A program made the position numbers and the translations under genes. The notes below the pieces were generated by a model. That model made no database searches. It had not been told where the DNA came from and saw nothing but the letters and a program-made list of their open reading frames with translations. DNA of 64,000 nucleotides from Eledone cirrhosa (lineage: Eukaryota). The first letter of the stretch is position 1. Every line of letters starts with the position of its first letter. Below, in pieces: positions 46,701 through 49,700 of the stretch. The DNA lies in contig OZ024743.1 in assembly GCA_964016885.1 (NCBI GenBank), positions 94,178,001 through 94,242,000 on the forward strand, written 5' to 3'.

Positions 46701-49700
46701 TTCTTTTTGCCTGTATGTCATGTTGATGCAGATTTAATATCTCAATTTCAGTGGAGTCTTTTGATGAAGCTCAAGAGAAGGTGGCCTTTAACCAGTACAG
46801 TATTTTCCAAATTGGAGCTGGCGGATTTGGAGGACCAAGGGTTTCAACATTTGCCAAACCCTTATCACAGACTCCTTCAAGTCAACCTCATGCTGTGATG
46901 GAAGAAAAAACGTCCCTTGACCAGGTGAGCAGGTTTCAAGTTCTACCTTACCTTTTCTCATAAAGACTGTTCTATATGTGTATGTGTTTCTTATATAGGT
47001 GTTATGTGTAACTATGTGTGTAGTTGATTAACTTTACACAGCATACAACAGTTTACACAGTACATCCCATTACATTCTTTACCCACTATATTTCATACAC
47101 CTCACCACACATCAAAGACCCCACTCTACATCATACATCCCTCTCTTCCTTTTCCATTGTATTTTATTCAAAATTCTGTTTCTATTTCAGGCTGCCTTTT
47201 ACCGTTTGTGTGGAGATTATAACATTTTACATATTGATCCCAGTTTTGCCAAGATGTTAGGTAAAGGAGAATTTTTCAGTCTTTTAAATTCCATATCTTT
47301 GATGCTAAAAGGAAAGGGGTGGGGGCGATTATTAAATCAAACCAAGGAAACTGCTTCCATTGGTGTTTCCATTATTGATACTATCTGCCAGTTGCATTTA
47401 TTGGTAGAATGATGCAGAATTTGAACTCAGAACACACAAAGCCAGATCAGATACTGCAAAGCATTCTGATAGACTCTTTAACAATTCCACCAAACTTGTA
47501 TCAACTGGTGCTTTATTTATCAACACTGAAAGGATAAGTTGACCTTGGTAGGATTTAAACTGAGGAGAGGTAGCATGAGATCAATGAGCTCTGAGGTGTA
47601 GAGACGACTGTCACAGAGGGAGAAGATGGTATAGCGAGAATACTGGTTGTATGAATGTAACAAAACGAGACAATGTTTGCGTATATAATATTTAATTAAC
47701 GGTAGATAGAATACTTGACATGTCAAAGATAGATGTTAGAATGAAACAAAGTTAGTAGTTACCGTTTTGATTGCCAGGCAAACGCGGCTGGCAGAGGGCG
47801 CCTGGCTAAGGCCAGGCGCCGGTTGGCCAAATTAATGGCAGAGCCAAATGAGAAGACTCTTGACCTGGTGCCGAAAAGGCAAAGAGAGAAAGGAAGCTCA
47901 AAGCCGCCAGTTTTATAGGGCTCTGACCGGAAGTCGCAGAAAGGGCTCCACCTCCCGTCCAGATCCCAACCAAAACAAGGGAGACAACCGCTACATAACC
48001 TCCCGCCAGAATTTTAGTGTATAAAAATCGAAATGAAAATATGTAGCAAGTTGGCGAGAATGTTGTAACAGGCATGAAAATTACGACAAAAGAATGTTTG
48101 GAAAAATCAATGCTAGATATCAAGGTAGTAAAGTAAGGGAAGGGCTCAAAGTTCAAATGTACAAAATATAGTTCACTGGTGTGCAATCACATGACCGCAG
48201 GAAAGAAAGTGTGTTCCAGAGAATGAATGCAGGTGGTCTCTGTTCTGTGGTATATCGTGAATTTCCAACCTCCGAATGGATTTTCTCACAGGAAGAGTGC
48301 TGCAAAAATAAATTCTCTGGCTTTGGTTGCTGTTGCTGTTGCTGTTGCTGCTGTTGCTGCTGCTGCTGTATTGCTGTTGCTGCTGCTGTTGCTGTTGTTG
48401 CTGCTGTAGTTGCTGTTGCTGCTGCTGTATTGCTGTTGCTGCTGTATTGCTGTTGCTGCTGTATTGCTGCTGCTGCTGCTGCTGTATTGCTGTTGCTGCT
48501 GTATTCGGTGTTTAAATTCACAGTAAAAAAAAATTTTTTTTTTTAAGAAAAAAATGAGTTGCGCAAAGTGCTAGAAATAGCAGCCGAAGTTGATGGTCGA
48601 TGTTGAGAATGCGTTGATCTGGAAGGGTCCAGAGGCCAGCGACCAGAGAAATAAGCATTCTTAATAAATGCGCGGTTATCAACGGTAAATTTACATTGTA
48701 AATTTATAAACCGGCAAATAGAAGAATATAGCTTAAGGCTGAAGAATCCTTGGGGGAGAAATGCTATCTCTGGCGTGCGGCTGTCTGTGAGGAGAGACAT
48801 CTCAGTGAATCGAGAATTTATGCTGCCTACACGTGCCAATACAAGGTTGAAAAAAAATATTTCTAACGCGCGAGAAAATGATAGTGCGATTTTGAAAGTG
48901 ACAATGATGAAAAAGAAAGGCTTCAATCAGCATAATTATAGGTGTGAACTTTGGAAAAAAAACAAAAAACTTGAACGATGAAGAAAACGAAGAACAAAAG
49001 GCAATGGTTCATCGAAAATAAATGTTCCTGTTGAAATGTTTTTTAAAGAATATCAAATTTCTTTTTTTTTTTTTTTTTTTTTTTTTTTTGTGTTTTGAAA
49101 GAGTTCGTTGTAAGAAACGAGAAACATATATATATCGTGAAATGTTTTTTTTTTGTTTTGAAAGTGTTCGTTGTAAGAAACGAGAAACATATATATATAT
49201 ATTGGTGAAATGCGACAGTTAATTGATGCGTGAGAGAAAAAGTATGTCTGTGCGAATTCCACATGTGCGTGTGTGCGTGTCCTTGAGTATTATCATAGTT
49301 TGTCGCTAAATTTGCTGCGTATTCGTAATGTTACTCACAAAACCAGATGTGCTATTTTTTTCTTTTTTTGGGGGTGACCACTTATAGCGATGAACGGCTG
49401 CGTGTTCGTATCACGTCGGGGTCACCAATATAGCGAGAATACTGGTTGTATGAATGTAACAAAACGAGACAATGTTTGCGTATATAATATTTAATTAACG
49501 GTAGATAGAATACTTGACATGTCAAAGATAGATGTTAGAATGAAACAAAGTTAGTAGTTACCGTTTTGATTGCCAGGCAAACGCGGCTGGCAGAGGGCGC
49601 CTGGCTAAGGCCAGGCGCCGGTTGGCCAAATTAATGGCAGAGCCAAATGAGAAGACTCTTGACCTGGTGCCGAAAAGGCAAAGAGAGAAAGGAAGCTCAA

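Follow-up and report, generated by a model that had tools for sequence, protein, structure and literature searches.

The window, a 64,000-nt stretch of Eledone cirrhosa DNA (contig OZ024743.1, positions 94,178,001 to 94,242,000), harbours a 2.17-kb LTR element on the minus strand, which has no coding capacity and carries next to its 5′ LTR a tRNA-Trp match extending beyond the primer binding site (PBS) of 18 nt. On the plus strand, positions 49396-49427 correspond to tRNA-Trp positions 45-76 including CCA, which makes 32 nt with a single mismatch at 49409, where A is replaced by T. This base is T-loop position 58 and the first one past the PBS. The match in this form had been proposed by the initial annotation and is borne out by the coordinates and by the host genes. 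The 14-nt tail is likely to represent plus-strand strong-stop DNA that became overlong by continuing beyond position 58, probably with a misreading of a methylated A58 (m1A58), and was captured once in the ancestor of the family. Taken separately, the read-through origin of the tail is very probable, and misincorporation as the source of base 58 in this family is reasonably probable.

The layout of the element is as follows:
49795..49798, minus strand, target site duplication CCAT, 5′ copy
49429..49794, minus strand, 5′ LTR of 366 nt, starting with TGTAGCG and finishing with CGCTATA
separating the 5′ LTR from the 18-nt PBS, minus strand, spacer of 1 base
49410..49427, minus strand, 18-nt PBS complementary to tRNA-Trp 76-59, of tRNA type in the window copy
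49396..49409, minus strand, 14-nt over-extension, complement of tRNA-Trp 58-45
49409..49409, minus strand, the sole mismatch, where the A of tRNA position 58 has become T in tRNA sense
49371..49390, minus strand, old LTR-end/PBS junction, decayed
48008..49370, minus strand, non-coding interior (about 1.4 kb) with T/A runs and a CAG-type repeat at about 48326-48500
47996..48007, minus strand, polypurine-tract-like segment preceding the 3′ LTR, recognised by position and sequence
47630..47995, minus strand, 3′ LTR, identical to the 5′ LTR
47626..47629, minus strand, target site duplication CCAT, 3′ copy

We found no differences between the two LTRs over the 365 nt compared, and as the LTRs are identical and CCAT is duplicated on both sides, the window insertion is young. 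With two LTRs, a PBS, a polypurine tract (PPT), a target duplication and no coding capacity, the element is an LTR retrotransposon of non-autonomous type. Pfam gave no match in the three interior ORFs, and the only Rfam match was a weak one to RSV_PBS (E 2.5). Using tblastn, we saw no similarity between 14 loci of the window family and Gypsy gag-pol from the same genome. No autonomous partner of the family was found, and its LTR showed no similarity to 25 other PBS loci. The CsRn1 clade of Ty3/Gypsy (CsRn1, PwRn1, AgCR) is described as having a tRNA-Trp PBS and a 4-bp target duplication (PMC2582038), and both traits are present in the window element, the latter as CCAT. We infer from these traits that the non-coding element is of Gypsy type and probably belongs to the CsRn1 clade. 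In comparison with this clade, the CHCC Gag appeared in family B only (see below), whereas the window element encodes nothing. The available part of the clade description mentions no extended PBS (PMC2582038).

Outside the PBS, 13 of 14 positions match tRNA-Trp, which is far above chance, and control searches with reversed patterns yielded no match in 3.0 Gb. We searched the host genome for tRNA-Trp genes using a pattern that allowed any base at positions 58 and 59. The host genes read TTCGAAT, and all 16 matches of the pattern carried A58. ARAGORN recognised tRNA-Trp at 14 of them, and one of the remaining two is an LTR read-through copy. None of the 16 matches contained GTTCGTATC, so the native variant which the initial annotation had named as the evidence that would speak against it is absent from these genes. 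T58 was absent also from the 28 rows listed, and contigs of two public DNA runs showed no variant at a frequency of at least 5 % at position 49409. A general tRNA scan of the genome returned 63 candidates only and was set aside. Some tRNA genes may be missing from the assembly, but with these counts it is extremely improbable that a host tRNA-Trp natively has T58 and pairs over the whole 32 nt. In the tRNA-Trp cluster on C4 we noticed a tRNA (L037:2609-2680) that combines a Trp body with a CGA anticodon.

The window family comprises about 590 copies genome-wide, and in the best 30 of them the tail, its end point and the mismatch are all identical. The initial annotation had expected that variable bases at position 58 among the copies would support misincorporation, and this check added no support. 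The mismatch is present in 583 of 591 copies and G (element strand) in the other 8, with neither the faithful letter nor C in any. The G58 copies looked enriched (8/591 against 0/583 at one control site) until they were compared with the family-wide A-to-G rate, estimated from 41 aligned copies, at which 13 are expected; ongoing misincorporation or A-to-I editing was therefore rejected as their cause and they count as background transitions. They are scattered on the tree of the family (6 changes for 7 rows), and because four of the eight retain the element-type PBS, these are not fresh read-throughs.

The PBS behaves differently from the tail. In most copies it has two element-encoded mismatches to the host tRNA, corresponding to window positions 49418 and 49423. 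The best 30 copies consist of 15 with this element-type PBS, 11 with the tRNA type and 4 corrected only in the LTR-proximal part, with none corrected only distally; the partial corrections suggest polar heteroduplex repair. PBS type changed 21 times on a 61-row tree of the family that leaves out 6 rearranged junction rows. We considered whether the majority PBS reflects a second host isodecoder and rejected this, as no host gene matches the majority form. Since host genes do not explain the mismatched PBS and the type has changed 21 times, it follows that a minority of insertions had their 18-mer re-templated by tRNA. The tail is passed on via element RNA and not rewritten, and the family is one old fixed event. 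About 13 copies lie at G000:C14:21.37-21.46 Mb with a spacing of 3.7-5.9 kb and one 37-kb gap, which is probably a tandem amplification. Two other loci (L086 and L087, G000:C1:204.39 Mb and 204.43 Mb) are head-to-head chimeras, which join LTR-PBS-tail of the window family to another family's inverted PBS and upstream sequence.

We confirmed the presence of a second LTR-end/PBS copy at 49371-49390, in which the initial annotation saw a sign of repeated tRNA/LTR-end capture. The junction is real. In seven copies of the family, all on its deepest branches, the PBS start at this junction still directly follows the LTR-end motif. We prefer to see in it the ancestral junction with the old PBS, where the overlong plus-strand DNA landed after switching, and thus a scar of the same capture rather than a second capture of tRNA. 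According to this scheme, reverse transcriptase (RT) would have copied the primer tRNA-Trp to about position 45. The overlong 3′ end, unable to pair at the PBS, would have switched to an LTR's final 10-14 nt, and copying of the LTR end, the old PBS and the interior would have created the order LTR-PBS-tail-LTR end-old PBS. The tail would then be inherited through element RNA, with the tRNA re-templating only the 18-nt PBS, while the old PBS would decay.

In the predicted RNA fold, one later change at 49376 allows pairing between the second junction and the working PBS. The effect is weak (z -2.1) and PBS accessibility was similar across all folded variants, so we rejected a strongly selected hairpin. 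A fresh 46-bp duplication of the PBS-tail unit via the same homology was seen in 2 of the 67 junctions examined. Such tandem duplications occur among the junction variants L153, L156, L154 and L047. In L156 the first PBS is tRNA-type and the second element-type; among the four loci, one copy stops at the second LTR-end motif and one jumps from the tail to the PPT.

Read-through was not confined to the window family. The Trp PBS pattern had 786 matches, with many plain 18-mers among the 100 listed, and patterns for longer matches recovered read-through copies behind many other LTR ends. We defined a set of 31 separate read-through copies without the window family and family B, both of which have inherited tails. 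Position 58 is faithful in 26 of them and differs in five (2 A, 2 G and 1 C on the element strand), against one mismatch in 230 at the other T sites. The search patterns left position 58 free and constrained other positions; with an approximate correction for this bias, 5 of 25 copies differ at 58 where 0.039 are expected per site (p about 0.002), the class being all hits with 0 or 1 other mismatch, which were fully listed. The upstream LTR was supported at 21 of 26 one-off loci, where the sequence matched another PBS locus or its own inverted copy. Many of the separate copies show rearrangements in the form of inverted or internal jumps.

The read-through origin of the window tail is argued from the presence of CCA, its contiguity with the PBS, A58 in the host and the many separate overruns in other families. 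Thus, in the earlier claim of a genomic record of RT reading through m1A58, the read-through part is supported, while misincorporation draws its statistical support only from the events of other families. Change at 58 is in excess across the separate events, and the host genes have A58 where the copy differs. With 26 of 31 copies faithful, most overruns used unmethylated tRNA or read m1A correctly. Two RTs have been reported to read m1A58 as T/G and m1G37 as G/C/T (bioRxiv 2023.12.09.569604, available part), and three of the nine mismatches at 58 outside the window family, being C in tRNA sense, fall off this T/G signature.

Another way of placing tRNA sequence beside the PBS would be a tRNA retrocopy, a SINE of tRNA origin or recombination with a tRNA gene at the DNA level. 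SINEs are abundant in the genome and tRNA-derived insertions near a PBS have been described (cqgypsy_1, PMC3286476, as far as its available text goes), but the window tail is antisense, in exact register with the PBS and without poly(A) or a duplication of its own. Moreover, CCA is absent from tRNA genes, and many LTR ends that are unrelated to one another are followed by tRNA sequence in this same register, with end points that vary. We consider this origin very improbable and largely refuted already.

The end points of the separate tracts, sampled at lengths of about 28 nt or more, were also uneven. Among 26 copies outside family C, 17 end at tRNA positions 35-41, six at 42-48 and three at 28-29, with no ends at 30-34 or below 28. 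This clustering differs from an even spread over 48-27 (p 0.0005). The clusters at 35-41 and 28-29 flank G37 and G26, both of which would be methylated in the host tRNA-Trp, judging from their conservation as RT-visible sites (PMC11417395, available part). One copy (L052) has a tract to 28 and differs at 58 and 37 only. A metagenome scan returned 19 loci, of which three were whole tRNA genes and were dropped. Four of the remaining 16 loci, some of them interrelated, differ at 58, three end at 27-28 and one differs only at 37. Two metagenome loci (L168/L179) repeat the window layout, with a PBS, a tail to 45, a second PBS and an open frame. Remnants of the tRNA-Trp T-arm were noticed in LTR ends or about 40 nt past the PBS in L058, L193, L196, L168, L179 and L199, and in L168/L179 the LTR-borne remnant differs at 58.

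Family B (L049, L050, L054, L055, L100-L103) is of autonomous type, with a CHCC Gag, DUF7041 and the order PR-RT-RH-IN. It has a fixed faithful tail that reaches the same tRNA position 45 as in the window family and lies immediately before the gag start. Such a tail could suggest that the tail of the window element, too, is a faithful copy of unmethylated tRNA or an old selected pairing box like that of Ty1, and that base 58 is an ordinary later substitution, tolerated as m1A58 cannot pair. The 26 faithful copies among the 31 separate overruns agree with this, as do tRNA-matching boxes that persist past the PBS or in the LTR end (L199, L058/L193/L196, L168). The mismatch in the window family also counts as a single event, and a later point mutation would have had a 1-in-14 chance of striking this position of the tail. 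However, the lone fixed change among the 14 positions of the tail is a transversion exactly at 58, and 58 is the most variable site in the separate events. The old junction downstream points to a single capture, and the LTR of the window family is unlike the LTR of family B and the other LTRs tried. Descent from a faithful copy or a pairing box is therefore unlikely, and capture of overlong strong-stop DNA stays the reading we prefer.

As to its present role, the tail would most likely give a primer duplex of 32 instead of 18 nt and so compensate for the two PBS mismatches that most copies have. A mismatch at 58 would be harmless because m1A cannot pair there. Calculated without modifications, the primer duplex of a majority-type copy has -27.7 kcal/mol with the 18-mer and -55.9 kcal/mol with the tail, and a longer primer duplex is the putative present function that we favour. 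Family C, unlike the window family, gives an indication of a second candidate role, that of a landing pad on which overrun DNA anneals. In the window family no rescue of such DNA can be seen, with 0 of 591 copies reverted; PBS correction fades with distance from the LTR, and rescue could be hidden in this way.

Family C (G000:C4:352409231, that is L107, with relatives L108-L136, L079, L082 and L190) has a Gag-like frame. In 28 of the best 30 out of 819 candidates the PBS has decayed to about 10 nt and is accompanied by a box matching tRNA 46-37. The other two, one of them the query, have tRNA sequence over the whole stretch, and three further converted copies were recovered by pattern, which gives five in total. 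These five required five changes on a 33-row tree, where a starred clade of decayed copies encloses one of them and another has a long branch that is unreliable. At position 58 they have T, T, T, A and A. On the simplest reading, overrun took place repeatedly in family C, the DNA annealed at the distal box and conversion followed in register, twice with the wrong letter of the window family.

The closest known feature, as far as the available parts of the sources go, is a sequence of lentiviruses and spumaviruses known as the primer over-extension sequence (Muthuswami et al. 2002, via PMC13191261 section 10; PMC8599865). Like this sequence, the window element has tRNA complementarity directly past the 18-nt PBS and beyond position 58. 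The over-extension sequence is described as letting DNA that overran A58 finish the second strand transfer, and it ends at 55/54, longer products being unable to transfer or integrate, whereas the window tail extends to 45. HIV-1 plus-strand synthesis stops at 58, 55, 54 and 37, with the first three products alone functional (PMC13191261), and DNA running past 54 is stated not to integrate (PMC8599865). In contrast to lentiviruses, the tails found here belong to Gypsy-type elements, in which they have been integrated and inherited; they extend to 45 where a family has them fixed and to 37 or 28 in single copies. Methylation of A58 in the host primer tRNA is assumed from conservation (PMC13191261, available part).

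Extra pairing of the primer T-arm outside the PBS is also shared with Ty1 and Ty3, which have extended or bipartite primer binding (PMC5371799), and with ASLV, where U5 pairs with the T-arm of tRNA-Trp (PMC13191261). In the available parts of these accounts the boxes lie apart from the PBS and the tRNA sequence of Ty1/Ty3 is not inherited, whereas the window match is contiguous and its PBS is re-templated. Unlike these boxes, the window tail bears a likely copying error. Errors and stops of RTs in tRNA sequencing fall likewise at A58, G37 and G26 (PMC11417395 and bioRxiv 2023.12.09.569604, available parts); here, in contrast, retrotransposon RTs acted in vivo and the products were fixed in the germ line, although the counts are small. 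Contiguous tails are not described in the available text of PMC12471100 and PMC3286476, and the full-text literature searched, with most subscription journals and repeat-database notes outside its scope, held no account of such tails in Gypsy elements.

As a tentative wider picture, to which we give slightly less than even chances, tRNA-Trp-primed Gypsy elements of CsRn1 type may often overrun m1A58, and the overrun DNA may integrate, found families and be rescued by long pads that end at the next methylated stops. The pad of family C would end at G37 and back up the PBS decayed to about 10 nt, and genome assemblies could serve as a fossil map of germ-line tRNA methylation (A58, G37, G26) in animals without tRNA data. 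According to the available parts of the retroviral literature (PMC8599865, PMC13191261), plus-strand DNA that extends far beyond A58 can neither transfer nor integrate, whereas here it has integrated in dozens of places, and in the window family the overrun product would have founded about 590 copies. The overruns bear as in vivo evidence on m1A58 as a strong stop and on its leakage. They also show how a primer site is rebuilt or duplicated and offer a readout of tRNA modification from assemblies.

Several other features were noticed in the window. Fragmented frames of LINE type lie at 36458-44218, with RT at 37622-38749, endonuclease at 40761-41792 and zf-RVT at 43679-44218, and probably belong to two elements. 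Repeated fragments of non-LTR type, with RT followed by a PHD finger, are located at 4011-5309 and 7487-8269, and related copies are found near 12.5 kb and 26-27.6 kb. A tandem array of near-identical 60-bp units with open frames occupies 56352-57431. Between 17381 and 59739 there are ten copies of a SINE-like repeat, which we take to be an octopod repeat.
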